From positions 14,469 to 78,468 of the IMG/VR virus record IMGVR_UViG_3300025864_000001: a stretch of DNA of 64,000 bases; one strand, given 5' to 3'. Both the position numbers and the translations under genes were made by a program. Below the pieces are notes generated by a model, which saw only the letters and a list, made by a program, of their open reading frames with translations, was not told the DNA's origin and made no database searches. Source of the stretch: a virus. Positions 3,239 through 41,000 of the stretch are shown in pieces (the stretch's first letter is position 1; every line of letters begins with the position of its first letter).

Positions 3239-4105
3239 TCAGAGGTTATTTTTCTTACAAAAATCATTTATCCGGTAGAACATCTCGGGGGCATCATCAA
3301 GAAGGCGCATCCTCACACGTGCCATATTACCCCTGTCTGTCTTAGTTGTACCCCAATAATGGGTATATTTATGACGGGCATCTTGTCCGGCTTTTACAGC
3401 ATCCTTATTGATGACCTTCACCTCTGGTCTTAACCCGTGTGCTTTTATCAGCGATGCAGCAAAATACTGCTCATGGAATAGATTCTGGTGTATTACGATA
3501 TCGCCATACTTCTTGAAAAACAAGTTTTGGTTCTCCGGTGCAAAGATATACTCCGCACTACATTTTATCCACTCTTTAAAGAACTCCATGTCGTGGCCAC
3601 CACATATGCCACAGTTATAGGCGAAGTCTGTAACTTTATTATCTTTAATTATCTGAGGCTTAACAGGTGCTTTGTCAAAACACGGTCTTAACAAATCATA
3701 GTAATGGTATCCCTTTAAGTGCATTGGCTCATGCGACTGAAAACACAAACGTGCATTTAATATCCGTGGTGGTAATGGGTCAAAGAGAAACACATCATTA
3801 TCGAGATGTACAAACGGCACGGTCTGTTCGTTGTACGCGAGTAACTTACCGTATGCCCAGAAGTATTTGGACACGGATTTCATCTCATTGAGCTTATCGG
3901 AATAGCTTGTTATTGGCAATCCGAGAGGTTTTATAACATCGAGACCCCATTGAGATGAAATAAACTGCACCTCCTTAAAATGACGGGAGGCGCAGAGTAC
4001 TGAGAGTGCTGTAGTGAATAGAAAATCACTATACTTCACGAATCCACATCTATTGCCGAAGGATTCATCTGGATTGAAGTATGAGAATACTGCTTTTTTT
4101 ATCAT
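3239..4105 (-). CDS. DUF6734-like putative GT-A glycosyltransferase
   Basis: FWAYGKLLAY..Q..PFVHLDNDVFL (DxD), YNCGICGG and EQY motifs. Confidence 0.65.
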   Translation of the reverse strand: MIKKAVFSYFNPDESFGNRCGFVKYSDFLFTTALSVLCASRHFKEVQFISSQWGLDVIKPLGLPITSYSDKLNEMKSVSKYFWAYGKLLAYNEQTVPFVHLDNDVFLFDPLPPRILNARLCFQSHEPMHLKGYHYYDLLRPCFDKAPVKPQIIKDNKVTDFAYNCGICGGHDMEFFKEWIKCSAEYIFAPENQNLFFKKYGDIVIHQNLFHEQYFAASLIKAHGLRPEVKVINKDAVKAGQDARHKYTHYWGTTKTDRGNMARVRMRLLDDAPEMFYRINDFCKKNNL

Positions 4106-6768: not shown

Positions 6769-7019
6769 TTGCCGTCCTCCATATCAGGTAGCAGAACATC
6801 ATCATCTGCGGGTTTCTCTTTTGCACCGAACTCACACCGTTGTCGGCAGAACTCTGAATTGTAATCCGGGCAATCACGATACTTAATCGGTTCCTCACTC
6901 TCACACAACTTTTCATTCGGTGCCACGTTTTCAGAGGACACGTTCTCCACAGTAGGCTGCATTACCGTCAGTTTTGCGCCATAACGTCCTTCCTCTTCTG
7001 CTTTATAACTCTTCTTCAT
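6765..7019 (-). CDS. hypothetical protein
   Basis: 84-aa ORF with a Cys cluster. Confidence 0.55.
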   Translation of the reverse strand: MKKSYKAEEEGRYGAKLTVMQPTVENVSSENVAPNEKLCESEEPIKYRDCPDYNSEFCRQRCEFGAKEKPADDDVLLPDMEDGK

Positions 7020-7037
7020 AGTATTTCAGGTATAAAA

Positions 7038-7367
7038 TTAATATTCAGTACTCTTCTTTATTGTATATCGCTCAATGAACTTCTCCATACCTCCCTTGCC
7101 CTTTCTTACTATGCTCTGCCTTCCTTTCTCTATCGAAGCAGTACTAACCTTCATTATTACCACATCTTCATCATCATAATAGCTAAACCTCTTTCTCGTG
7201 AAGATATCCACTAATACCCCTTCAGAAAGACCCGTACGCTTACTCAGTATCCTCTTATTTGTACAACCACCACACTTAATACTCTTGTCCCCTATCCCTA
7301 ATTTTTTATAATAGTAAACAAACAGTTCTTTCCCCGTTAATCGTATGTCTATCCCCCTTACTCCCAT
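7038..7367 (-). CDS. hypothetical protein
   Basis: 109-aa ORF, first gene of the leftward run. Confidence 0.6.
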   Translation of the reverse strand: MGVRGIDIRLTGKELFVYYYKKLGIGDKSIKCGGCTNKRILSKRTGLSEGVLVDIFTRKRFSYYDDEDVVIMKVSTASIEKGRQSIVRKGKGGMEKFIERYTIKKSTEY

Positions 7368-7743
7368 GTCTTTTTTCTTCTAAAAACTATTCTATGTGAT
7401 ACCAGTAGTTATTTCAAATTACTAATCGGTGTTCTATGTGGTGTAAATTAACAACCTTATTTTGAATCTACCAAATAAAATACCACAATTCTGCACTTTA
7501 CCCTAAGTGTGCGTGTCCTTGCAGTCTATATACATGTTTTCGGTTGGTCGCGTATTTCCAAAATCGAAAACGCGAACCCACCAGCCCCCTTCTGGGACTC
7601 CGGCAACTTTACCGGACCATATAAAGCGCGTTATTGTCTCCTGATCAGCAAATAAAGCGGTTTGTAATACTATTCAATAGGGTAGGGGAGGGCATTACAT
7701 TAGCACAATGCCGATGCCTGTCTGATCAATGCAAATACATTCT

Positions 7744-7771
7744 ATTTGACATAATAATTATTATAGGCTTT
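7744..7771 (-). other. dif-like XerC/D recombination site
   Basis: AAAGCCTATAA-TAATTA-TTATGTCAAAT: 11-6-11 layout, XerD arm 10/11 identical to TTATGTTAAAT, intergenic. Confidence 0.5.
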
Positions 7772-7953
7772 ATATGATAGGGGTCTGCATGCGTGCGTTT
7801 AGCTGTGTGCTGTGCGTTCTGATTGCCTCATTAATTGTGCCTTTGCGTGTGCTTTTATCTGTTTGCATGTTAATTATATGCTTTAATATTATGTAAAATA
7901 GCACAGTAAACGGGCTAAAAGTGTGTAATATTGTGGTTTTAAGTGGCTGACGA

Positions 7954-8571
7954 TTGAATACTCACACAAATAACGGACCAATGGCAGGACAAACGCGACC
8001 AAATGAGGCAAACGACCTGAATAACGGTCATTCTCTTTCTTCTCTTCCTTCCTTACCTGTAAGTCTGAATGGTTTATATCAGGTGTTAAATGATGATATG
8101 AAGAGGCTATTTATTAAGATGTACAATTATTTATGGGGTGTTGTTAATGGTTATTCGGTGCGGTCCTGTGGCGTTGTGTCATATTATTGGCTATTGTCCC
8201 GTGTTGCTGCCTCTTCTTCTCTTGCTCCTTCTTCTCTGGTCCTGCTGTCATATCTTTATATGATGACAAGTAAAGGAACTAAGTTAATACATTCTAATAT
8301 TGTACATAATAGTGGGGTGTTGCCTGGTGCGCTGCCGATTACTGTCCAGCGTGTAACATGGGACCTTAAACATGCCGGATACATTACCAGACATACAAAA
8401 GATCCCGGCCAACCTTACAGCCAAAGGGCACAACATAACAAACAGCCGGTTTATATTCGCCTTACTCCTTTGGGCTTGCGTGTCATTGAAGATATGACAA
8501 AGGACATTAACAAACTATTGCTTAATACTTCGCTTAATGATCTTACAGGGGTGAACATAAAAAAACCCTGA
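7954..8571 (+). CDS. winged-helix (MarR-like) DNA-binding protein
   Basis: LVLLSYLY..TVQRVTWDLKHAGYITR..YIRLTPLG wHTH pattern; start may be ATG 7981. Confidence 0.55.
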   Translation: MNTHTNNGPMAGQTRPNEANDLNNGHSLSSLPSLPVSLNGLYQVLNDDMKRLFIKMYNYLWGVVNGYSVRSCGVVSYYWLLSRVAASSSLAPSSLVLLSYLYMMTSKGTKLIHSNIVHNSGVLPGALPITVQRVTWDLKHAGYITRHTKDPGQPYSQRAQHNKQPVYIRLTPLGLRVIEDMTKDINKLLLNTSLNDLTGVNIKKP

Positions 8572-8594
8572 TAGTATTGATTTATCAGGGTGTT
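8560..8594. terminator. intrinsic terminator between convergent genes
   Basis: CCCTGATA/TATCAGGG stem with a flanking A-run. Confidence 0.65.
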
Positions 8595-8612
8595 AACTCG
8601 TTTAGGCTGCGT

Positions 8613-9119
8613 TTATTCGCTTGTTAACGTGCCATCATCAGTAAAATAATACTCATTCGCTTCAATGGTATCAATTATTGCCTCCTCGCTGGTCCTGTAC
8701 TCGTACTCCTTTGTTAATATTATCCTGTAATCCTCACAAAGAGACTTTAAAAATTCATCTTCTAACTCTTCTATCTCTTCCTCTACTGATTGTTCTATCC
8801 TTCCATTTTCTCCGGTCAATGCTTCAAGGTCATTTAAAAACTCTTTTGCTGTGTCAAATGTATCACATTCATTGCCGTGACTTACTTTTATTAGTTCGGC
8901 TGTGTCTGCTGCTGATACGATAAAATTACCTTTTACATAACTTGCTCTATCAATGTCAAAGCCTGTTATCTTAAAGTTGATATTTTCTGCATCCTCATAT
9001 GTTGATTCAAACCAGTTAGAAAATTCCACATTAATAGCTGATAGTTTATTTATTGCGTTCTTTTTTGCCTCTTCTGATAGTTCGCTGAACTGATACAGGT
9101 TAATAGTTTTTGTTTTCAT
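8613..9119 (-). CDS. acidic early phage protein
   Basis: LYQFSELSEEAK...YEYRTSEEAI...ANEYYFTDDG family pattern; strongly acidic. Confidence 0.7.
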   Translation of the reverse strand: MKTKTINLYQFSELSEEAKKNAINKLSAINVEFSNWFESTYEDAENINFKITGFDIDRASYVKGNFIVSAADTAELIKVSHGNECDTFDTAKEFLNDLEALTGENGRIEQSVEEEIEELEDEFLKSLCEDYRIILTKEYEYRTSEEAIIDTIEANEYYFTDDGTLTSE

Positions 9120-9143
9120 CTTATTTTGTGTTTTTGGTGCCGG

Positions 9144-9416
9144 TTAATATTGTTCTGTAACATCATATACAAGCTGTTCCCATCTATCTAAACCGTTCGG
9201 GCGTCCTCCTTCTTTTAATTTGGGGCACAGTTTAATAAACTTAATAGCATATTGTAAGGCCTTTAATAGGTCCGGGGCTGCTGCAAGTAGTCGCGCGTTG
9301 GCTTCCTGTTCTTCGTTATCCTTATCAAAATAAGGAATAAGGGCAAGCGTTTTCCCTGTCTCTTGTGGGTAAATTTGTCCGTCCTTAGTTATCCATGTTC
9401 CTTCTGTGTGTTTCAT
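9144..9416 (-). CDS. early protein, MKHT.G.W / ANARLIAAAPDLL family
   Basis: MKHTEGTW...EANARLLAAAPDLL. Confidence 0.75.
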   Translation of the reverse strand: MKHTEGTWITKDGQIYPQETGKTLALIPYFDKDNEEQEANARLLAAAPDLLKALQYAIKFIKLCPKLKEGGRPNGLDRWEQLVYDVTEQY

Positions 9417-9458
9417 CGTCTTGTGTGTTTAATGGTTAATACTCTGGTTTACTGTTTA

Positions 9459-9641
9459 TTATAGTCCGCAATCTGCATCAGACTGCATTTCATACTCTAA
9501 TTCGTAGAGTTCACTGGCTCTGTCTGCGCAATCCTCGCAGATATTGACATCAAGAGGGCTAATTTCCCCGTTCTCTATCATATCAACCTCTGTTTTAGAT
9601 AGTTGAAATTTCTCTTTACATATAATACAGGTGCGTTTCAT
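9459..9641 (-). CDS. small zinc-ribbon protein
   Basis: CIIC...CEDC. Confidence 0.65.
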   Translation of the reverse strand: MKRTCIICKEKFQLSKTEVDMIENGEISPLDVNICEDCADRASELYELEYEMQSDADCGL

Positions 9642-9652
9642 AGTGTTGTGTT

Positions 9653-9745
9653 TTAAAGGTTTTCAACTATTGTTTCTATTTCTTCATCCGTAGACCCTTG
9701 GGCCCTGAGGTCCTTTACAAATTCAATTAATTCACTGGTTTTCAT
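9653..9745 (-). CDS. 30-aa early peptide (not in the ORF track)
   Basis: MKTSELIEFVKDLRAQGSTDEEIETIVENL, preceded by the AAAAACACAAAC motif seen before neighbouring genes. Confidence 0.55.
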   Translation of the reverse strand: MKTSELIEFVKDLRAQGSTDEEIETIVENL

Positions 9746-9778
9746 TGGTTTGTGTTTTTAATTAATACTAATCAGATG

Positions 9779-9893
9779 TAAATGTAATACATATATATCA
9801 TATAAACAAATCTTTTTACATATTTATTTTGCATTATTATATTATTATTATTGCTTTTTACTTGTTTATATGATATTTATAGTTTTACTTTGT
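9779..9893. promoter_or_regulatory. divergent early promoters sharing a 15-bp inverted repeat
   Basis: ATATCATATAAACAA (9795-9809) and TTGTTTATATGATAT (9862-9876), each followed by a near-consensus -7 box. Confidence 0.65.
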
Positions 9894-9919
9894 ACTGTTA
9901 ACCAATAAAAACACACACA

Positions 9920-10300
9920 ATGAAAATTAAAAGCAGTAACGCAAGTAGTTTTTTAAATCATCTCAAAACATTGGCCTATCTTGGTAATGTTGATGAGTGG
10001 AAAGCAGAGAACCTTTACAAGAAATTAAAAAGGATCGAATCAAGAATGAACCGTTTAATGTGCGATGAGTGCAACGGGACCAGACCAGGCACCGAAGAAG
10101 AGAACGAAAAGAAAGACGAAAAAGTAATTGATCGAGTTAAAAAGCTCCTTCCGGTTGCTACTGGCGTATTCCTTAACGGGGACCCTCGCGGCTATACTCT
10201 TAAAATCAAGAGCGAAGATGTTAAAACTTTGAACGAGGCCGGCAAAATCAATATTTATCAGGATTGGGGCGGCTATGGTATTTTGGCCCCTGAATTTTAA
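9920..10300 (+). CDS. early hypothetical protein (NGDPRGY family)
   Basis: 126 aa with LNGDPRGYTLKI; first gene after the rightward promoter. Confidence 0.75.
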   Translation: MKIKSSNASSFLNHLKTLAYLGNVDEWKAENLYKKLKRIESRMNRLMCDECNGTRPGTEEENEKKDEKVIDRVKKLLPVATGVFLNGDPRGYTLKIKSEDVKTLNEAGKINIYQDWGGYGILAPEF

Positions 10301-10301
10301 A

Positions 10302-10356
10302 GGTTTGCTGATGATTGTTAAATACATGAAAGCGGGCTAATTACCCGCTACAAACC
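10302..10356 (+). ncRNA. hammerhead ribozyme (type I)
   Basis: stem I GGTTTG/CAAACC, CTGATGA core, short stem II, GAAA, stem III GCGGG/CCCGC, CUA cleavage triplet. Confidence 0.85.
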
Positions 10357-10373
10357 AATAAAAACACAAAGAA

Positions 10374-10637
10374 ATGACAAACACACTAATTAACACAGAT
10401 TACCGGACCTATTTAGTAAGGTTCAAATTTCAATCAACATACTGCCGTTTTATCGTGCAGGGTTCCGGGCTTATGGACTGCTTAAAACAGTATGATCAGA
10501 ACGGGGTGGAATCCATTAAAGAATTTGACCCGCTCAAAAGTACATTTAAACGCATTTCCCGGGCTGATCTCCTGAAGGCGTTCAAATGGGAAACAGAAAC
10601 GTATGAGTATTTAAAAAATCATTACTTTTTCAAATAG
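10374..10637 (+). CDS. early hypothetical protein
   Basis: 87 aa; upstream 16-mer identical to that before gene 9920. Confidence 0.75.
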   Translation: MTNTLINTDYRTYLVRFKFQSTYCRFIVQGSGLMDCLKQYDQNGVESIKEFDPLKSTFKRISRADLLKAFKWETETYEYLKNHYFFK

Positions 10638-10708
10638 TTTTTATTGGTTGCTTGGTTAATACTTTGCGCCTGGGGTGTGTTCCTGGGCGCAATTAACCAC
10701 GCTTAACC
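10637..10708 (+). ncRNA. long hairpin with segments antisense to early-gene start regions
   Basis: GTTTTTATTGGTT, TGGTTAATACT and GTGTGTT complementary to early start regions; long imperfect stem. Confidence 0.55.
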
Positions 10709-10723
10709 GTAAATATTAATATT

Positions 10724-10924
10724 ATGGCACGAAAAAAATGTACTTTGGAATCTATCGCGCTGACTACTTTAAAGCCTGGTGCGTTCCTTTACTCTCATAA
10801 GGCCGATAAAGATTTAACGGCTATATCTCATTATTATCGGGTGCGGATAGCTACTGAGCGTTTAATATTGATCAATCCGCAGACCTGTAAAGCTCAAAAA
10901 ATTACAAAAGTTACTTTACTCTAA
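10724..10924 (+). CDS. early hypothetical protein
   Basis: 66-aa ORF. Confidence 0.6.
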   Translation: MARKKCTLESIALTTLKPGAFLYSHKADKDLTAISHYYRVRIATERLILINPQTCKAQKITKVTLL

Positions 10925-11384
10925 TACCTTATATTATGGAATATCTTTATTTATTAATTCCTGGTGTTCTGATCCTGATGATCTTCTTACCCTCTATTAA
11001 ACCCTTTAATACTGTGAAAAAATGACAATAGAACGCACCGCAACCAATTTAATGACCGGACAAATAAGAACGGTTATTTTTACACGTGTTGAGGATCATA
11101 ATTTTAATATTGCCAATCTCTGGCGGTCCTCTGATGGTGGTTATTATACCTTTGGGATCCTCGGATGGTTTAACGTTGATAAATACCTGAAACATGATTA
11201 AGCGCGTTTTAAGGCATCAATTTGCCCCGTTCCTACTTATCCCCCTGTCTTGTATCTATTGGGGTGTGTTCTGGGCCCTGGGGGTCCTGCTGGGCTTAAT
11301 GTAGCCGGGAGAATGCAGGGCCAAAGGTTTTAATATTACAATCAAATAGTATCACAATTTTTTAATTTATAAAAACACAGAAAA

Positions 11385-11597
11385 ATGAAAGAAATTAAAT
11401 TTAACAGAAATACGTCATTTTTAGGGCGTAACGGCATGTTTAAACAATCCGGTATCCGAATAAATGAGATTACTGGCGCAATAGCTTTGTACCCGATCAC
11501 CAGTAAAGGACAAATCGGACGAGCATGTTTAACTATTCCAAAAGATAAGTTACAGGAATTTATGAATGCACTATTATTAACCCCTCTCACAGATTAA
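11385..11597 (+). CDS. early hypothetical protein
   Basis: 70 aa; AAAAACACAG upstream motif. Confidence 0.65.
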   Translation: MKEIKFNRNTSFLGRNGMFKQSGIRINEITGAIALYPITSKGQIGRACLTIPKDKLQEFMNALLLTPLTD

Positions 11598-11668
11598 GTT
11601 TTTGCCCGTTACAAGTCGGGAATAATACAGAGTACAGGGGCGCAAGCCTCTGAAATGTAACCAAAAAC
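11598..11668 (+). ncRNA. twister ribozyme (type P3)
   Basis: P3 GTTTTTG/CAAAAAC, P4 CCCG/CGGG with loop TTACAAGT, P2 TACA/TGTA, GAGTA, P1 CAGGGGC-GCAA-GCCTCTG; both pseudoknots (UAC/GUA, GU/AC) pair. Confidence 0.88.
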
Positions 11669-11677
11669 ATAGAAATT

Positions 11678-12028
11678 ATGAAAGATCAAAAACACACAGC
11701 AGGAAATTGGACACGTGGAACTCGTACCAATACAAAAGAATGGATGCAAATAGTTAGTGATGGTATTATACCAATTGCAGAAGTAAAACCATTACATAAA
11801 ACCGGATACAGAGAAAAGGATGACTTTCAAACAGAAGAAGCAAACGCAAAATTAATTTGCGCAGCCCCAGACTTACTAAAAGTTTGCATTGACTTACTTA
11901 ACGCATTTGTCCACAAAGAGAATGACAAGAAAGGCAACCAGACAAGAACGGACATTTTTAAATACTGTCCTGAATTTGGGGAAATAGCAGTAGCAGCAAG
12001 ACACGCAATCGAAAAAGCAACGGAATAA
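11678..12028 (+). CDS. early protein, ANAKLIAAAPDLL family
   Basis: KHTAGNW...EANAKLICAAPDLL...KATE. Confidence 0.75.
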   Translation: MKDQKHTAGNWTRGTRTNTKEWMQIVSDGIIPIAEVKPLHKTGYREKDDFQTEEANAKLICAAPDLLKVCIDLLNAFVHKENDKKGNQTRTDIFKYCPEFGEIAVAARHAIEKATE

Positions 12029-12149
12029 TGAAAACAATTTGTACACATTGCGGGAAAAAACAAACCGCAAAAGAAAAAGAGTATTCTTTAAATAGCGCAA
12101 AATGTAAGTTTTGTAAAAAAGAAGGTACGTTAATAGAAATAACAAAGCA

Positions 12150-12392
12150 ATGAATAAACCAACCTACACACCGGAACAGATGAACGGCAAATATATTGCC
12201 TGTTCTGTATTACTCGATCCTCCCGGCTTGGGTGCAGTCGAATATGCCACAGGACCACGCGAGGGATTGCCCGTACTCTACAATTCCATAGCATCAGCAG
12301 AAGATGATTTGTTTTGGGATGACTTATGGGATCACATTATACCCGCAAGTGAATATTTTGAGCGGGTGGCAACAAATAATTTTAAGTTTTAA
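12150..12392 (+). CDS. hypothetical protein
   Basis: 80-aa ORF. Confidence 0.6.
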   Translation: MNKPTYTPEQMNGKYIACSVLLDPPGLGAVEYATGPREGLPVLYNSIASAEDDLFWDDLWDHIIPASEYFERVATNNFKF

Positions 12393-12413
12393 AATATATA
12401 AAAAAGCATAATT

Positions 12414-12692
12414 ATGAAACACACACAAGGAGAATGGATTATGCACAATAACGTGTTTAATTCTGTTGTAATCACAAAAATAGACAGTGGTTATAAAGTT
12501 ATCGGATCATTCACAAATGATAATAAATTGATCCCAGAAAACGAAATGAGGGCAAATGCAAAACTCTGCGCAGCAGCCCCTGACTTACTGGAGTCCTGTA
12601 TCAAATTATTTGAAATTGTTGATACAAGATCCCAATCCGATGAAGATATTTGCTTCATGGCATATAAAACCATTAAAAAAGCCACCGAATAA
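12414..12692 (+). CDS. early protein, ANAKLIAAAPDLL family
   Basis: MKHTQGEW...ANAKLCAAAPDLL...KKATE. Confidence 0.75.
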   Translation: MKHTQGEWIMHNNVFNSVVITKIDSGYKVIGSFTNDNKLIPENEMRANAKLCAAAPDLLESCIKLFEIVDTRSQSDEDICFMAYKTIKKATE

Positions 12693-12982
12693 TGCCACAA
12701 TTTAACCTCTTTGGAGAGATAGACGTACAGACCATGCCGGAGCCGGAAATGGTTTCCGAAATGCCTGAGCCTGAGATGCCGCACCCTCGCAAGTCAAAGA
12801 AGAGAAAGTCTTTTGATATTGGCATTTGTCGTGCGTGTGGTCAGTTACTACTCGATGATCCTGATAACACCAGGATTAAGATTGATGATGAGTTATGTGA
12901 GGATTGCGATGCTACATTAAGGGCAAAATACAGTCAGTATAAAAATTTTGCTCTTATACGAGCATTGAGAATGCGTAAATAA
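12692..12982 (+). CDS. zinc-ribbon protein with an MPEPEM repeat
   Basis: CRAC..CEDC; duplicated MPEPEM. Confidence 0.6.
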   Translation: MPQFNLFGEIDVQTMPEPEMVSEMPEPEMPHPRKSKKRKSFDIGICRACGQLLLDDPDNTRIKIDDELCEDCDATLRAKYSQYKNFALIRALRMRK

Positions 12983-12997
12983 CTTAAAAATAATAAC

Positions 12998-13236
12998 ATG
13001 AAAACTATTGAAGTTTCAGCCAAATCAATGACTGAATTTATTAAAAGCACAAAACTTCATTTTGATAATATTGATAAAATTATGAAGTTGCCGGAATCTA
13101 ATGAAAGAGGCAGGATGATAGCCAAAGAAATGAAATGAATCGGATTAATTTCGATTATGATGCTTTTCTTCATTTTGCGCTTAATATCCCAATGGACAAA
13201 CTCCAATCGGTGAGAAATAAAAGTTTCAAATTATAA
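12998..13236 (+). pseudogene. 77-aa gene interrupted by a 5-bp duplication
   Basis: GAAAT GAAAT at 13127-13136; removing one copy gives one open frame from ATG 12998 to TAA 13236. Confidence 0.55.
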
Positions 13237-13246
13237 AAACAATATT

Positions 13247-13477
13247 ATGAAAACAAATCCAAATAATCCAATTAATGCAATAGTAGGAGACAGTACAAAA
13301 TTTGCCGGACTTACCAAGCGTGAATACTTTGCAGCAATGGCAATGCAGGGACTTCTTGCAGGACATTACGAATACTTTACAGGTAATGCAGATGTTTCTG
13401 TACCAATGGAAATTGCTAAATATGCAGTTTATAATGCAGATGCTTTAATTGAAGAACTTAATAAATCAGAATTATGA
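13247..13477 (+). CDS. conserved phage protein (GLTKREYFAAMAMQG family)
   Basis: GLTKREYFAAMAMQGLL...AV..ADALIEELN. Confidence 0.8.
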   Translation: MKTNPNNPINAIVGDSTKFAGLTKREYFAAMAMQGLLAGHYEYFTGNADVSVPMEIAKYAVYNADALIEELNKSEL

Positions 13478-13974
13478 AAAAACTATTTTTTTTACTTTTG
13501 ATCAGCGTGTCATTCTCAGCAATGGCACAGCGTTATCCCTTTGCCCTCTATGTATCACACCAGCCGGTTGACTTTGGTATTGGTGTGCGTGGTGACTATT
13601 ATATACATGGCTTAGGCTTGTATAGCTCTGTGTCTTATGGCAATTGGGGACTTTACAGACAGTATGATATAAAACACCATGTAAAGCTATCAACGGGTGT
13701 GTTATTGCCTCTGCCAGATTATAATGGTGCTTCATTTGATGTTACTGCCGGCATTAATTATCATCTTTTAGGATCTGTTATGCTCGATAACTCCCCTCTT
13801 GACCCTAAAATCTTTAACCCTTGGAGTTTTGAGTTAGGGATTACAGCTAAATTAAAGCGTTTTTCATTAGGTTTGCGCACTGACATTTTGCGTTGGGAAC
13901 CATGCGTGGACGTAGGTTTTAAACTATTTAAAGGACAATATTATGACAAAGCAAAAAGTAAATCCTGTAAGTAA
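13474..13974 (+). CDS. secreted, probable outer-membrane beta-barrel protein
   Basis: Sec signal MKKLFFLLLISVSFSAMA; alternating aromatic/Gly beta-strands. Confidence 0.55.
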   Translation: MKKLFFLLLISVSFSAMAQRYPFALYVSHQPVDFGIGVRGDYYIHGLGLYSSVSYGNWGLYRQYDIKHHVKLSTGVLLPLPDYNGASFDVTAGINYHLLGSVMLDNSPLDPKIFNPWSFELGITAKLKRFSLGLRTDILRWEPCVDVGFKLFKGQYYDKAKSKSCK

Positions 13975-14167
13975 TCGTAAAATGTGGTGCTATTATGCGC
14001 CCGATGGGTGGCCACAAGTAAGAACATTAGCTGAGTCTCGAGTTGAATGTAGGCTGATGCTTAATAAATATGACTATCCTGCTACATGGCAGAAAGCTGA
14101 AAGTCAAGGTGCTTTTATACACAAAGTTGTTGTAACAATAATTGAACCTTTAAAATTAAGCCAATGA
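13943..14167 (+). CDS. hypothetical protein
   Basis: 74-aa ORF. Confidence 0.55.
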   Translation: MTKQKVNPVSNRKMWCYYAPDGWPQVRTLAESRVECRLMLNKYDYPATWQKAESQGAFIHKVVVTIIEPLKLSQ

Positions 14168-14517
14168 GAAAAAAGCAAATTTTCGTTCAAACGCAGGGTG
14201 TAGATAAGAACAGGGTCTCCCCCTTTAAGCCTATGGGCTTTGTTGCGCTTAATTTTGACAATATCAAAATGACTATTGATGCGTATGATTATTCAGGTGT
14301 GCTTGCTGAACCACGTGAGGACTCTCTTGTTGAGATCATGGACGAAAAAGAAGTATTTCAATTCACCCCTGCACAATTACTGCAAGCAATAAGATTTTTT
14401 CAACGCTATGCCGAAATGGGGAAGGATGTGGTGCGCTTTAAGAACATCTTCCATGTCATTATGCCAGACAGGTATAAGAATGCCTTACAAGTCACGAAAC
14501 GAGGTCTTAAATTTTGA
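14164..14517 (+). CDS. hypothetical protein
   Basis: 117-aa ORF with ATGA coupling. Confidence 0.65.
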   Translation: MRKKQIFVQTQGVDKNRVSPFKPMGFVALNFDNIKMTIDAYDYSGVLAEPREDSLVEIMDEKEVFQFTPAQLLQAIRFFQRYAEMGKDVVRFKNIFHVIMPDRYKNALQVTKRGLKF

Positions 14518-14545
14518 GTTTTAAAAATAGTTTATCTTTGTACCG

Positions 14546-14971
14546 ATGCAGACACAAGACACCATATCAAAAAAGAAGTTGGACCGGATAAAAATAATTT
14601 ATAACGGGGACGTGGAGATAATAGATTTCCTTTCCGATCTGAAAAGCAGGGATGTGATAGCCGGACTACAAGACCTCATCCATGATAATAAAGGACTGCC
14701 CTGTGCCCTCCTCTTTAATTGTGGATGTGATGATATTGTGGTAATGATACTCTATAAATCACCTTTTGCGTTCAATGATCCGGGTAATACTCTCATGCTT
14801 TATGCCGGAAATGAACTACATGAACTGATGGTGTACTTTAGACATCTTTTGGATAACACTTCAAAAGAGAAAAGCGTTATTAACCAAGCATTAACTGATA
14901 TTGTGCAACTACTGTACCAGGAATGGAACAGATTGCAAGACGATAATGTTCAGTCTGATTTTTTAGGCTGA
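14546..14971 (+). CDS. hypothetical protein, probably near-leaderless mRNA
   Basis: 141 aa; TATCTTTG box at 14533-14540 lies 5 nt before the ATG. Confidence 0.65.
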   Translation: MQTQDTISKKKLDRIKIIYNGDVEIIDFLSDLKSRDVIAGLQDLIHDNKGLPCALLFNCGCDDIVVMILYKSPFAFNDPGNTLMLYAGNELHELMVYFRHLLDNTSKEKSVINQALTDIVQLLYQEWNRLQDDNVQSDFLG

Positions 14972-14979
14972 CATAGAAC

Positions 14980-15018
14980 GGGTGCCGGTTTGTGTGTTCC
15001 GGTGCCCTTTCTTTTTTT
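14980..15018 (+). terminator. intrinsic terminator with a loop antisense to early start motifs
   Basis: GGGTGCCGG-TTTGTGTGTT-CCGGTGCCC followed by a T-tract. Confidence 0.7.
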
Positions 15019-15045
15019 CTAAACACTATAATCAAATTAATTGTA

Positions 15046-15609
15046 ATGAAGATGATCACAGGAACTTTAATAACATGGTTTTGTTTTCTCACTTGCTCGG
15101 CACCTCCTCCTTCGGTGGCGCAGCAAAAAGAAAACATTGAATGGGTTAAAATAGAGATTAATCGCATAGACTGTGAAGAGCAGCTTGCACTCTTTATTGA
15201 ACACTTGGGTATCCGTGAATCGGGTAATCGGTGGCAGATAATCAATGCAATCGGATGTATGGGTAAATTTCAATTTGCTCACAATACTCTTGAGTGTCTT
15301 GGTTACGGCTACATCACACCTCAGCAGTTCGCTCATAACCCTGAAATCTTCCCCGAAGCACTACAACGTCAGGTGTTGCTTGCCCTCTTTAAATCAAATG
15401 AAATAGCACTTAGAGACTATTTCTATTATTGCGGGCAGGAAATAGCAGGTGTGACAATAACCAGATCGGGAATGCTTGCTGCGGCTCATCTTGGAGGTGC
15501 CTATTCCGTAAAACTCTTTCTGCTTAGCATGGGGCATGTCAATAGACAAGACCTGAACCAGACATCAATAAAACACTACCTGAGCGAATTTGCCGGGTAT
15601 AATATTTAA
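15046..15609 (+). CDS. lysozyme-like / lytic transglycosylase with a signal-like N-terminus
   Basis: GIRESGN..IN.IGCMGKFQF and LAAAHLGG motifs. Confidence 0.7.
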   Translation: MKMITGTLITWFCFLTCSAPPPSVAQQKENIEWVKIEINRIDCEEQLALFIEHLGIRESGNRWQIINAIGCMGKFQFAHNTLECLGYGYITPQQFAHNPEIFPEALQRQVLLALFKSNEIALRDYFYYCGQEIAGVTITRSGMLAAAHLGGAYSVKLFLLSMGHVNRQDLNQTSIKHYLSEFAGYNI

Positions 15610-15619
15610 AAACACGACT

Positions 15620-15937
15620 ATGACAAAAGACAAGATTATTGAAAAACAGAAAGAACTGATTATCGTATTAACAACGGCCTTGGATTTCTTGGCAGATAAC
15701 AATCTGATTAAAGAAAAAAAAAATAATAACGATATTGATAATGAGCCTTTAATTGATTGCGTGAACAAGGCAGCCAAATTAAGAACTGAGGTTAAAGAAC
15801 TTGAATCAGAACTTTTTAAAGAAAAAACTCAATGCCCTTATAAAGGTGAAGAAGGTAATACATATGATCTATGTCCTTCATGGATCGCTTTTACAAATGG
15901 GTGTGCTGATTGTGTTAAATATCATAAAAATCAATAG
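15620..15937 (+). CDS. hypothetical protein
   Basis: start MTKDKII; Cys-rich C-terminus. Confidence 0.6.
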   Translation: MTKDKIIEKQKELIIVLTTALDFLADNNLIKEKKNNNDIDNEPLIDCVNKAAKLRTEVKELESELFKEKTQCPYKGEEGNTYDLCPSWIAFTNGCADCVKYHKNQ

Positions 15938-16246
15938 CTATGAAAAAAGACAAAACACCTATTGAATTTGAAGATCCTGATCCCTTTGACGGGATGAAAG
16001 CTCTTGGATGTCTGCTTATCGGCTCGGTACTGATCGCAGTAGCACTATTTCTGTTTGGAGTACTCATTAAAGTAATACAATGACTATGAAACTATTCTTA
16101 GCTATTTTAATGGGTGTCATCGCCATTATGTTCCTGTTCTTTGCCGGATTCGCAGAGGTGGTGGCAGTTGCCTTTGTTTACGTACTGCTCGCAATGTTGA
16201 GCATGCTCTTATCATTCTATTTTTACTTTGGTAATATCGAGTTTAA

Positions 16247-35095: not shown

Positions 35096-38000
35096 TTATT
35101 TTTTAGACCTGATTGATTCATTTGCTATGTCACGAGCTGAACTTGCAGCATCGGCAGCCATCTCCTGTAATGTTGTGGTCTTTTCTGGCACTGGACGTGT
35201 CGTGGATTCGATGATGTTGGTTATGCTCTTTTTCGCCTCATCCATCTCCTCCTGTATGGTTAGTCCCATGGAATTAAGATTCCTTAGATACTCTGACCAA
35301 TAGACATTTGAGTAGGTTTTTCTATCTTCTTCACTCAGTTGTACACCCTGCCAGTATGAGGGTATTACAGGCTTATTTAACAGGTCATTCTTTTTGAGGA
35401 TAGAATACTCGGCTGGGTACTTCTTCTGCAGGTCAACGTCATTGAGAACATTAAATCTCTGGTTTTTTCCCGACTCGAGATGTTGAAAGTTTGTGCCAAT
35501 AGATTCATCTTTCGGGTACCAACCTGCATATACCTTAGTGAGCCTTTCGAGTTCCTGCATTACCGGCACCTGCTCATCCATGGACTTCTGTAACTGTCCT
35601 GATCGCTTCTTATCTGCCACGGTGTATGCACGTGCCAGTGCCTCTGCGGATAACCCTTTTTCTTCAGCATTTTTTATTGTTTTGAGAAAATCGGAATTTG
35701 CATCTCCCATTCTCTGAGCAAGTGCGGTGTATCTGTTTGTCAGATAATCAATATTTCGTTCCACATATACCTTTAATTCGGGTTTATCGAACTCTTGAAT
35801 CTTTATAACATTATTAAGTATAGTCTGTTTCCAATCTCTTTTCCTTCCATAATAGTCCAGATTGCCACGGATGCCATCATACATGTCCTGTGCGCCTTTA
35901 AAGAATGGCACCTGACTTCTGGCAATGTATGTCATAACATTTAATATCCTTTCATCTGTGGTGATATTGGCATTATGATAGGCAGATGCGTTGGGGTTCT
36001 GAATCGAGATGCCACGATAATCCCTGTCAAACGCTACCGATCCTATCCATCCCCATGTAGCATCAGCAAAAGCCGGAAGGTTAGAAGTCTCCCCTAATAT
36101 TGGTCTGTTGACTTTTGATAATTGAATTGGAAGGAACTTACTTACCTCTGATAACTGCGTGCCTGCATCTGCATAGTTGTAGTTATATAATGGAGACAAA
36201 TATCTTGCAACATTCACCTCTGATTTACCTACTTTAAAACTCAATGGGATATTGACAAGCGGTATCTTAGCCACTCCTTTCCTGCCCTCTCTGACCTTTC
36301 TTTCTTCTTCTGTCTCACCGGATAAGGTACTTGCAAGTATCCCTCCCATTTTGATAAGCATAAGAGTGCCTATCAATGTTAGGGGTGTTGTGGTAATGTT
36401 ATTCACAAGTATCCTTTGCAAGTCTGCCTGGAACTTTGCAAATGTCGGACCAATCAATGGTATTTTTGATGTAAAGTCCCATGTCTTGCCTACCGTAGAG
36501 TAGTTCTGAAACGCATCATAAGCCCTTCTGACAGACGCATCATGGCTCATGCCCTGCTCTCTGAAAACCAAGTATGCGGAAATCTTAGCGATATTATCTG
36601 CACCTACATACGCTTTTGTAGCGAGTTCATCGGCTTTGCTTAACTTGCCTCCCTCTTTGCTTTTAATGATTGCAAGTGGCTTCATTTCTCCGGTGAAAGC
36701 TACATCGCCTATCAGTCCGGTTTTTAATAATGCCTTATATACTTCGGGACTCTTGTGATATAATTTTATTGCTTCAGGAAACTTACCTAAGAATGATACT
36801 GGATTAATGCCATTAGCCGATGCAAAGAATATATTTCCTGTGACGTTCCCAAGTTGTACCATGGGATTATAGACAGTCCTTAGTTTCTTGTAAAACTGAT
36901 TTACATTCGATCTGTCAACCTTCTTAAAAGCATTGTAAAGGTCATTAGCAACTGCATTGGAGTAATAAAACCCTGTGAAGTCCTCAACGACATGGTTTAT
37001 CACTGCCTTGTTTCGGAACGGGCCCCAACTGTATGAACTTCCAAGCTTGGTGTATCCCTTTGGCACTGCTTCACCCTTCTTAAGCGATAACACGAAGTCG
37101 GGATGTTCCTGTATCACTAAGTCCATATAACCCTTTATAGCCACATTCTGTATCGTCTGCATGACTCTTTTTGCAGTAAGATAAGTCGGGTCACGTATGG
37201 CATGTTCCTTTTTCCATTCCGTACTTTCCTCACGTGCCTTAAACATATCGGTCATCATCTTTGTAGTGATGGCACTATTTCCCCTGTTAATAAACTCCTG
37301 TATGGCAGGGTCAAGTAATGTCTCCCCTTCATATTTATCGTACATGCGGGCAATGTATTTTGAGTCACCCGTCACATCTTTGTTTTTCAGATATGTCTCG
37401 GTGTCAAGGAACCCATTGGCATAGTTTGTCTCATGTACCCATGTATTCCAGTCCCTCATCTTAAAATATAGATTCTTTTCAGCAAGTGACAAGTCACCAT
37501 AACTCAGTTTCTCTATTGCAAACTCAGGATCAGGGTCAAGCACATCAAGCACCCTGCGTAATGATTCGGGATCTGAATGAACTATATCCAACCATTTCCC
37601 TCTTAGTTCTTTCGCTTCATAAGGTGCAAATGACTTAACTGTACCTGTGAATGCAAGTTTCCCTGGTTTCCCTCCTTTGCCATGTATGTCAGCCTGTGTA
37701 CGTCCCAATCCACCCCAGAAGTTAGTAATGGCTTTGCTTGGCCATCTCAATAAGTCCATTTGACTTTTCATGCCTGCCTGTAATACATTGGCAATACGAT
37801 TATTTAAAGCATCTCTGACCTTTACCAACTGTTTGTAGAGTACGGTGTTCATCAGTGGAATAGGATCGGGTGGCAGAAACCTTATTGCTACTTTACCATT
37901 ACCTCCTTTTTTCTTACCGAATGTCTTTAGCATCTCGTCCTCGGCATCCTTGGTGTGGTTGCCCATCTTCTTATCCATGTTGGTGGAGTTATTGGTAGCC

Positions 38001-41000
38001 TGTTTGCGCAAATCATCCTCAAACTTGCCTACATCTTCACGTAACTGTTTGGATTCCTCAAAAGTGATATCCCCCTTATCAAGAGCATCTAATACCTGAT
38101 CTACTTCGGTGTATGTCTTGTCTTTGAACTTAATTCCTTGTGTTGGCGATGTTTCTATCTTAGGTGCTTTTAATCCTGCACTTTCGAGAACTGCATCTGC
38201 ATCCGCTTGTGTTATTCTACCTTCTTCTACGAATTTCTTTAGATAGCCTCTGTCAAGTTCTCTCTGGTACTGAACCCTTAAATTTTCCTTGGTTGCTTCC
38301 GTAACTTGCTTCTCCCCAAATCTCTCTTTCAACCTTTCGTTAAAAGTAAGCATAGACTCTTCTTTGGGATTGCCTAATAAATCTTTTGATATATCTTGTA
38401 CTATTTCCGGTTTTGTGTTAAAATAACTATTACCGAGTTCTTCATATCCAAGTTCCTTCTCAATCTGAAGTATTTTATCTTTCGTTTTCTGATTCGGACT
38501 CTTTTCGTATGATTCAAGTAGTCTTTGGTAATGATCAACCTTTGCGCCTCTGGATTGTAGTTCTGCAATTTTCCCCCCAACTCCTGCAATCAGTTTACCT
38601 TGCGTTGTATTTTTGAGTTCTTCAATATTCGGCTTCACCTCTTTCGCATAATACATGTCCTTCAGAAGTTTCTCCGCACTCTTTTCAAGTTGTCCTCTGC
38701 CATCCATCAGTTTTGTCCCTGACATGTCAAGGAACTTATATGTGCCTTTTTTGGTGTTCATAACTACTTTCACCACGGGTTTACCGTCTTTGTTCTGCAA
38801 CCAAAAACCTTCTGGATTCTTTACTGCACTCCATCCGTATTTTGATACTGCATCATTGAGAGTGGTGCTTACTTTTTCTCCGGTGGCTGTGATAGGTTTT
38901 ATTTGTGCTTCAATTCTTGATATTGCTTCTTTTAGGTCAGCGATATTTTGTTTCCGCAACTGATTCTCCCCTATGCCACCCTTTTCCCAATCTGCTCCCT
39001 TTTCTTCAATACTGAGATTTGTTTTTAATTTATCTAATAGATCAGTTGGGTTTTCTCCCTGTTTCACCTTATCATTAAAACTATTTAGAGTGTTTACAAC
39101 TATCTTTTCTATTGGGGTAATGGGTAATTCAGAACCTTTTTTATCAATAACAGACTTGGTGTATTGCGTCCATTCTTCGGGAGTGTATTCTGATTTATTT
39201 TTTAATATCCCATCTGTGCGTCTTGCAAATTTTATTTCTTCGGGTTTTGTGATAGGTTTTGCTTCACCTTCTGTAACAACTGGTTCCTTACCTGCCTCTG
39301 TGCCTCCTGAAACGATATTTTCTTCTCCTTTGCTAATTGGAGGATTTGCTGTGTCAATTGGTTTTTCATCTATGATGGGTTTTACTTCTTCTGGCTTTCC
39401 AGTTTCTTTTGGTCCATTTTCTCCCGCAGGAGTCTCAATTCTTCCAGATACGATGTCCCCTTTGCCTTTGCCTTCAATAACAGGAGGCTGTGCAACCCTT
39501 TCGCTAAATTCGATTTTTTCTCCATTGTTTGATAGTATTTCGTTTAACTTTTTAATCTGTTCCGGTTTTAAATCAAATAACCAGTTATTGACAAAAAATT
39601 CAGGATCGGTTTTTATCTTATCCTTTATATAATCCCAATCGAACTCGCCACTGCCTAACTCAGTCTGGAAGGCTTTTATGGCATCCTCTACGTCCTTGTC
39701 TCCCTCTGCTGCCTTTACGAGATCAGTAAATTCTCCGGTGCTTTTGACTATTTCCAGGTCATCATCCATGTCTCTCTTTGCTCTTTCTTCGGGACTGAGA
39801 ACTTCTTTATCCTGCCAGTCAATCTCTTTATGACGTTCCTTGAACTTCTGAATTATAGTCCCTTTATTTAGTTTGCCGTCAACTTTAAGTGCGTCAATAG
39901 CCTTGAGAATGTCATCTGGTGTTATCTCTCCACCATTTTTTCTACCATATTCTTCTGCTAATCTCTCATGCAACACATCAAATGCCACACCCTTCTCTTT
40001 ATTAAGGTAGAAACTCAACCCTCCACCTACAATATCCTTATTACCATAGTTTGAATGCCTGAGAAAATCAGCCCTACTTAAAGTGCCTCCACTTAAAAGA
40101 AACTGAGCCATAGAATCCGTAAAATCACTCGGGGTTGCATTGACTATCTTTCCCGACTCACTATTTGGGGATATTTTAACAGTTCTTTTCGGCTTACTTG
40201 ACTTCTCAAGTGCTGCCTGAGCTCTGTCTACTTCTGCCTGTTGTTTTTTAGTGAGTTTTTTAGGCTCAACAATAGGTTCTTCTGTCTTGGCTTTTGGCTT
40301 ATCCGGTGCGGGTTCTATTGGCTTCTCTGGCTTATTGAACGACCACGTTTTATCAGGTAACTGTACTGCCTCCCCTGCCTCAACAAGTTTCTCCCATGCC
40401 TTTTGCATATCGGATGAGTTCTTACCTTCAACATCAGACATCAATACCTTTCCTTCTTTTAATGCCTCTTTATTCAAGAGTATCATTGCATCCCTTCCTG
40501 CTCCACGAGTATCTTTATCCGGTCTGGCTGCCTCAATCCATTTGATTCTCCATCCATCGGGGGTGTCCTCAATAGTGGCTTTTCCTACTTGTTCTTTGCC
40601 CTTTAAAATAGGTATATTGAATGAACTCTCGGATTTGATCTTTAAGATGTTTTTTTCTGACTGAGTTACAATATCCCGTTCTCCGATTGATACTTTATCC
40701 GTACCCTTTTCTTTTGCTTTCTCTTTCGGTATCATTGAATAGTAGTCACCAACCATCTTACTTTCTTCGGGTGTGCGTTCCTTAACTGGCTTATCAACGG
40801 CCATTAACAACTTATCAACATCAGTTCCCTTAGATTTTAAGTCAGAGATAATCTTAACCCTGTCAACATCCGGTTCTGCGGAACGTCTTTGCATCTTATT
40901 GTCTTCCAACTGCAAACCCATTTCAAGAGATGCCTGATCTGCCTCTTGCTTTGATGCGTACTTCCTCTTATCAACTAATACGCCCTCTTTGTTATAGATA

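Follow-up and report, generated by a model that had tools for sequence, protein, structure and literature searches.

A stable hairpin in an early stop-to-leader gap of a phage genome, a possible non-catalytic counterpart of neighboring ribozymes

The DNA analyzed here (the window, 64,000 nucleotides) comprises bases 14469 to 78468 of a 78,468-bp IMG/VR virus record that carries direct terminal repeats. The best DNA match of the record among sequencing runs is a peat metagenome, no RNA run was listed among its matches, and a blastn search against INPHARED phages returned no match. Its gene leaders are A-rich (A fraction upstream of genes, 0.45 versus 0.27 genome-wide) and devoid of Shine-Dalgarno motifs, with an SD-like 4-mer in 13 of 118 crude gene calls. 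These leaders, together with a distant homolog of the 87-aa gene described below on an Aequorivita metagenome-assembled genome (MAG) contig, suggest that the host probably belongs to the Bacteroidota. Early genes on both strands have a common degenerate A/C-rich leader of the type AACC..AAAAACACA..ATG. The AT-rich divergent control region that separates leftward from rightward early genes contains a 19-nt inverted repeat (9791 to 9880; 95% complementary, arms 52 nt apart). The hairpin studied here lies in the rightward set, among the following features.

9900 to 9912, plus strand: 13-nt element in the leader of the first rightward early gene (ATG at 9920), an exact complement of the 13-mer at 10637
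10301 to 10358, plus strand: hammerhead-like motif with a CUGAUGA and GAAA core and three stems (z = -3.3)
10353 to 10365, plus strand: 13-nt element in the leader of the 87-aa gene, the predicted long-range cis partner of 10637 to 10649; the pair brackets the whole cistron
10374 to 10637, plus strand: upstream cistron, an 87-aa ORFan early gene ending in TAG at 10635 to 10637
10635 to 10718, plus strand: the hairpin, between two early phage genes
10635 to 10644 with 10709 to 10718, plus strand: outer helix of the fold
10637 to 10649, plus strand: anti-leader 13-mer GTTTTTATTGGTT, 5' strand of the weak outer helix; its first base is the last of the stop codon
10637 to 10723, plus strand: hairpin gap, the third stop-to-leader gap
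10646 to 10651 with 10701 to 10708, plus strand: basal helix of the fold
10653 to 10660, plus strand: 5' strand, UGGUUAAU, of the middle 8-bp helix, pairing with 10692 to 10699
10661 to 10664, plus strand: 4-nt bulge, 3' of that strand
10665 to 10691, plus strand: apical 11-bp stem-loop (stem 10665 to 10675 with 10681 to 10691; loop UGUGU, 10676 to 10680)
10692 to 10708, plus strand: 3' strands of the middle and basal helices, in which leader-like UUAACC occurs twice; 10708 is the end of the conserved core
10709 to 10723, plus strand: leader of the next gene (ATG at 10724), also the 3' strand of the outermost helix
11598 to 11668, plus strand: twister-P3 ribozyme (59.6 bits against a gathering score of 39.9)

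The 87-aa protein has few relatives, with four homologs at 66 to 100% identity, and matches nothing in Pfam or PHROG; for the 126-aa gene, no relative was found in viral contigs. A first-pass annotation had described the hairpin as a multi-target antisense RNA, and the strings and coordinates that it listed are all correct, as is the fold. Folding of 10630 to 10725 gave -35.3 kcal/mol (z = -5.19), and 0 of 200 shuffles folded as well. When 90-nt windows from both strands of the whole 78-kb genome were ranked with G+C correction, the hairpin came second in stability. In long-context folds, pair probabilities reach 0.99 to 1.0 in the apical stem, where 7 of the 11 pairs are G-C, and ∼0.56 in the middle helix. 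The 8 and 11 bp stacked across the 4-nt bulge, with 6 basal and 9 outer pairs, have the anatomy of an RNase III-type site: nearly continuous double-stranded RNA of about two turns that contains internal loops, placed between the stop codon and the next ATG. Because the apical stem contains three G.U pairs, the sense strand is the more stable by 9 kcal/mol (-35.3 versus -26.3 kcal/mol on the minus strand), a bias that points to an RNA acting in the sense orientation. The TTAACC motif is not enriched in the window.

A G+C-rich stem behind a stop codon could be a leaky factor-independent terminator or attenuator that lowers transcription beyond the 87-aa gene. Hairpins in the same place in two relatives (L004 and L005, below) end in U-rich tails, and the loop is in common with that of a canonical terminator. 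However, the 15-nt tail here holds 3 U, whereas the true terminators of this phage have 7-T runs, and the terminator scan did not call the hairpin. The 16 nt between it and the next ATG contain no promoter, and the downstream genes, which have no visible promoter, therefore need read-through. We consider attenuation improbable. The canonical terminator-like hairpin in question, at 14976 to 15026, has a tail of seven T. Its loop, UUUGUGUGUU, is complementary to the leader motif ACACAC, and GUGUGUUCC recurs in the apical part of the 10635 to 10718 hairpin.

Could the region be translated instead, either as a 22-codon hydrophobic extension reached by TAG read-through or as a coupled mini-ORF starting at TTG 10644? 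The frame is open for 22 codons past the TAG, which is the rarest stop codon (9 of 118), and specifies a membrane-like peptide. The conserved core ends 2 nt beyond the TAA of the extension, and the 36-aa membrane ORF at 11194 to 11304 contains, in the same phase, a 12-nt match that encodes WGVF. Against this, the genome has no tRNA gene at all and no suppressor tRNA, an equally long open extension follows 19% of genes, other frames are equally or more open in relatives, all protein homologs are 87 aa long, and the hydrophobic codons simply reflect a G/U-rich composition. Translation past the TAG is, to us, the least credible of the readings considered, and it was dropped as unsupported by the tRNA, open-extension, and frame comparisons. 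Two further candidates were rejected. The idea of a DNA hairpin promoter of the N4 type, used by a virion RNA polymerase, found no support: the 2619-aa ORF at 35096 to 42955 of the window matches no sequence in Pfam, PHROG, or PDB and lacks a DFDxD motif. Published early transcripts of crAss-like phages have no common motif (bioRxiv 10.1101/2020.03.07.982082). For T4 gene 60-type translational bypassing, the sole matching landing codon meets a stop two codons on.

In this operon, three gaps have their first base at a stop codon or no more than one base away and extend into the following leader. One holds the hammerhead-like motif, which was not detected by Rfam models and whose stem I 3' strand runs into the leader. 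Another holds the twister, whose outer helix begins on the first base past the stop codon and reaches into the following leader. In both of these gaps, a G/U-rich strand after the stop codon pairs with the A/C-rich start of the next leader, the closing helices being GGUUUG/CAAACC (hammerhead-like motif) and GUUUUUG/CAAAAAC (twister). The hairpin occupies the third gap, and here the 5' strand is a perfect complement of the consensus leader and the 3' strand is a diverged leader. The first-pass annotation was right to liken its position to that of the two ribozymes, and the comparative data below strengthen this point.

A gap type common to two ribozyme types invites the idea that the hairpin belongs to an undescribed self-cleaving class. 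Earlier ribozyme classes were discovered in just this way, as structured RNAs near twister and hammerhead genes, and the entire core is fully conserved in sequence. The approach of finding ribozymes near known ones has been reviewed (PMC6765202). We considered the hammerhead, twister, twister-sister, pistol, hatchet, HDV-like, and hairpin classes. The fold is a hairpin that does not branch; it has small bulges but neither a conserved junction nor a pseudoknot, and the hairpins at the same place in relatives have no unpaired motif in common. No Rfam family matched the hairpin at E values up to 5 (7000 to 16000) or up to 1 (whole window), and a CUGAUGA/GAAA core is absent inside 10637 to 10708. 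An unknown self-cleaving RNA, as had been proposed, finds no support in either the fold or the database search, and we regard a new ribozyme class as very unlikely.

The antisense reading was built on three matches, all of which exist. The 13-mer is the exact reverse complement of 9900 to 9912 and 10353 to 10365; TGGTTAATACT is present at 10653 to 10663 and 9433 to 9443; and GTGTGTT is present at 10675 to 10681 and 9423 to 9429. There are three exact copies of the 13-mer in 64 kb. An exact 13-nt antisense match to another early leader was reached by 11 of 1,000 dinucleotide shuffles, so that this match is only modestly unusual (p ∼0.01). The other two tracts do not go beyond chance (11-mer, one mismatch allowed, 4 matches versus 1.9 expected; 7-mer, 13 versus 7.8). 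The 13-mer is the one match that stays notable, and judged by the criterion set in the first-pass annotation itself, complementarity better than that of composition-matched shuffles, the multi-target claim largely fails. Scored as duplexes only, the hairpin was marginal, with p ∼0.09 for the best duplex energy and p ∼0.02 for the sum over all leaders. We then calculated net binding to 11 early leaders as the cofold energy minus those of the two monomers, with 250 random native 96-nt windows as the control. The best target scored -9.5 kcal/mol and the sum was -49.9 kcal/mol, values equaled or beaten by 26% and 44% of the random windows, respectively. Since the early leaders are all of the A/C-rich type, any G/U-rich RNA will match several of them.

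These numbers bear on the proposal that an antisense RNA, acting in trans or excised, represses several early leaders of the two strands. Beyond the p value of the exact 13-mer, it is favored by the low cost of opening that tract (3.0 kcal/mol, against a duplex energy of -13.0 kcal/mol) and by an unpaired 5' U-rich tract that is conserved where the outer helix is lost. The 11-mer, however, is buried (opening cost, 9.4 kcal/mol; duplex, -12.3 kcal/mol). In addition, the 7-mer precedes the 11-mer at 9423 to 9443 (plus strand) and follows it in the hairpin; because the order is not colinear, a single antiparallel duplex of both tracts with the leader of minus-strand gene 9144-9416 is impossible. 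A scan that covered sigma-70-type promoters found no promoter-like or terminator-like site framing the hairpin, which would thus lack a promoter and terminator of its own. Net binding no better than that of random native windows, with no such framing sites, speaks against a trans-acting repressor sRNA, and the multi-target version is further weakened by the chance-level tracts and their order. Partners in the same RNA would also compete strongly. The 13-mer pairs in cis with 10353 to 10365 at a probability of 0.83 to 1.0 in folds of RNAs starting at 10301 or 10351, and in a long-context fold of an RNA starting at 9900 its predicted partner is the leader at 9900 to 9912. We give repression in trans only a slim chance. 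The 5' strand is built as the complement of the consensus leader, as in the ribozyme gaps, and is for that reason complementary to other leaders. The antisense matches are thus a by-product of a cis closing-helix design, and no trans target is required.

We compared the gap after the 87-aa gene among seven members of this gene family. A long hairpin immediately follows the stop codon in four of them: the window (z = -5.2), L006 (z = -4.5), L004 (z = -4.4), and L005 (z = -2.2). L003 and L015 have no hairpin, and L007 has, in place of one, a fragment with a tRNA-like T arm; the hairpin is thus optional. The hairpins of L004, L005, and L006 show no clear homology to that of the window, and RNAalifold on the window, L005, and L006 yielded a poor alignment with 9 pairs only. 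L005 and L006 keep the middle helix despite a change of GGCA to ACCA; because the 5' partners occupy different alignment columns, this change was left out of the covariation count. The pairing between leader and post-stop sequence is absent from L004, L005, L006, L007, and L015, and the bracket is specific to this genome type.

The gap of L007 (3300 to 3372) contains a perfect tRNA-like T arm (GUUAG UUCGAUU CUAAC) and, 3' of it, an acceptor-like strand that ends in CCA. No tRNA is called there by ARAGORN, and the element may represent an RNase P/Z-type signal for processing in this gap. Farther along the same contig (3690 to 3775), a type I hammerhead-like motif stands directly before the next gene's leader, in the order GGUUAA, CUGAUGAG, stem II, GAAAC, stem III, GUC, UUAACC; Rfam at E values up to 1 does not report it. 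Stem I of this motif is the same as the middle helix, GGUUAA/UUAACC, of the window hairpin.

Downstream of the gap, the window hairpin precedes a gene pair consisting of a small membrane ORF and a 66-aa gene. The same pair is preceded by a twister-P3 ribozyme in L002, and in L005 a different hairpin precedes the small membrane ORF. From these arrangements, hairpin and ribozyme are interchangeable in the gap, and the order of the small genes is shuffled. The L002 twister (2814 to 2885, 51 bits) lies directly after a RadC/JAB-like gene. The small membrane-type ORFs of the window, at 10938 to 11027 (29 aa) and 11194 to 11304 (36 aa), have homologs in L002, L005, and L006 that stand in a different order relative to their neighbors. 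L002 also carries, at 3830 to 4090, long Ala-rich imperfect repeats (AADAAAYAA type) inside an early gene, which produced a spurious isrG Rfam match.

Contigs from three DNA metagenomes (X2, X3, and X5) were compared over 10250 to 11750. In contigs of all three whose flanks are unlike those of the window, and which belong to two other studies, the core, 10632/10638 to 10708 (71 to 77 nt), shows zero differences. Metagenomes of peat and soil thus carry an unchanged core next to other genes. The X2 contig joins 10708 to 10978, the X3 contig joins 10708 to 10990, and a depth-90 contig of X5 runs past the core into unlike DNA. On the 5' side, the joints 10362>10633 and 10381>10637 are candidate deletions that, if genuine, would create a 25-aa ORF behind a standard leader, in favor of the coding reading. 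Identical pieces and joints all end at 10708, beyond which the other contigs differ; because the conserved core ends there, the outermost helix is specific to this genome. Summed depth in X5 is 121 to 155 over the hammerhead-like motif and the hairpin, and the ORFs between them have none. The twister of the X2 relative (window 11593 to 11712) carries several substitutions and indels at 11632 to 11657, chiefly in its variable stem, with its core kept. Variation in a variable hairpin is the usual pattern of ribozymes and contrasts with the invariant hairpin core. All copies of the window-type core are identical, and covariation is therefore unmeasurable. The core is single copy in this genome; DNA-pattern scans for it found nothing in viral contigs or genome contigs, and the L005/L006-type pattern matched unrelated coding DNA only. 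Another stretch, 11321 to 11384, which is intergenic before gene 11385, resembles the RNA modules in having a depth in other metagenomes (∼100 in X5) far above that of adjacent ORFs, and may be another conserved regulatory cassette.

An identical core between different flanks in other metagenomes is also what would be expected if it were mainly a conserved linker for swapping small early genes, a recombination junction or relic with little RNA function today. Such a relic may descend from a hammerhead whose catalytic core has been lost or from a terminator hairpin no longer followed by a U tract. The shuffled gene order in L002 and L005 relative to the window fits this idea, as do the match between the middle helix and stem I of the L007 hammerhead-like motif, the resemblance of the apical loop to the true terminator loop at 14976 to 15026, and the precedent of the PeSL elements (PMC2839356, PMC4122927). 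PeSLs are repeated, however, whereas this core occurs once per genome. A relic should decay, yet the core is identical among its copies and forms the second most stable fold of the genome, and the G.U-based strand bias points to selection on RNA. We judge a junction or relic with little present function unlikely, if the most plausible of the alternatives. A caveat to the cis-acting reading preferred below is that the perfect conservation of the core could stem from recent exchange instead of selection.

Our preferred interpretation, put forward tentatively at somewhat less than an even chance, is that the hairpin is a cis-acting intercistronic processing or stability module and the non-catalytic counterpart of the neighboring ribozymes. 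The structure, its strand bias, its position, its interchange with a ribozyme, and its conservation between different flanks are observed; a cleaving or protecting role, and whatever influence leader pairing may have on translation, are the parts that we infer. The rightward early polycistronic mRNA would carry the hairpin in the gap between stop codon and leader, where the robust core (the 8-bp and 11-bp helices) would form in the sense RNA and most likely mark the cistron boundary. The core could serve as a double-stranded cleavage site for an RNase III-type host endonuclease; alternatively, it could be a barrier that shields the 3' end of the upstream cistron. An RNase III or other processing site is compatible with the anatomy and with the positional equivalence to the ribozymes, and the original suggestion of an RNase III site would be accommodated in this way. 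The G/U-rich 5' flank would act as the 5' strand of a closing helix and the leader as its 3' strand, pairing within the same molecule with the leader downstream of it or, in a more stable helix, with that of its own cistron. A protein nuclease or a decay barrier would thereby do what the neighboring ribozymes do by self-cleavage, and the cistrons would end up separated or insulated, with a standard leader presented. The conserved core also appears to be the junction at which related phages exchange small early genes. Processing of polycistronic mRNAs has been proposed for bacterial and phage ribozymes and is unproven (PMC6765202).

A bolder version, which we think has little likelihood, would make the hairpin a third kind of mRNA punctuation beside hammerhead and twister. 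The 13-mer and its own leader would form a 13-bp helix that loops the ribozyme-freed cistron and controls its translation or stability, or else the core would be a new self-cleaving class. In either version, equivalent stop-to-leader gaps of one operon hold a hammerhead-like motif, a twister, and a plain hairpin, and twister and hairpin have been exchanged between relatives. This arrangement offers a natural test of whether such ribozymes serve to separate cistrons and whether a hairpin that depends on a protein can take their place. The biological role of phage and bacterial ribozymes is still open (PMC6765202). Shuffling of small early genes also seems to take place at conserved RNA modules. 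The multi-target antisense regulator first described would have been the more unexpected result, and it is not supported.

The hairpin resembles several known systems in part. RAGATH-type structured RNAs are found near twister and hammerhead ribozymes, and here too, in DNA of phage type, a structured noncoding RNA has a twister and a hammerhead-like motif within ∼1 kb; unlike those RNAs, it is a plain hairpin, and no Rfam family, RAGATH included, matches it. The term RAGATH appears in PMC11061315. With ribozyme insulators, the hairpin has in common its placement in a gap directly upstream of a standard leader and the swap of a twister for the hairpin in a relative. RiboJ-type parts are synthetic ribozyme insulators. 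An insulator role between cistrons has also been proposed as a natural role of ribozymes (PMC6765202). The hairpin differs from these insulators in having no catalytic core, and any cleavage would for that reason need a protein nuclease.

The RNase III hairpins R0.3 to R1.3 of phage T7 lie between early genes, and the polymerase reads through them. Like these, the hairpin described here is long and imperfect, has internal loops, and stands between cistrons of an early polycistronic mRNA; the stable hairpin that T7 sites leave at the 3' end of the upstream cistron may be counted as a further likeness. It differs in that it is known from a predicted fold and that the host is probably a member of the Bacteroidota, in that its type of gap also holds self-cleaving ribozymes, and in that its flank is complementary to a common leader. 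With the T4-type PeSLs, it shares the character of a conserved intergenic stem-loop motif amid small, variable early ORFs (PMC2839356, PMC4122927), and, to judge from the unlike flanks in X2, X3, and X5, it may likewise be an exchange point between otherwise unrelated genes. In contrast to PeSLs, the module contains no recognizable early promoter and is present once per genome rather than as a repeat family. The T7 RNase III sites and the T4 PeSL cassettes are the nearest described counterparts of this hairpin.
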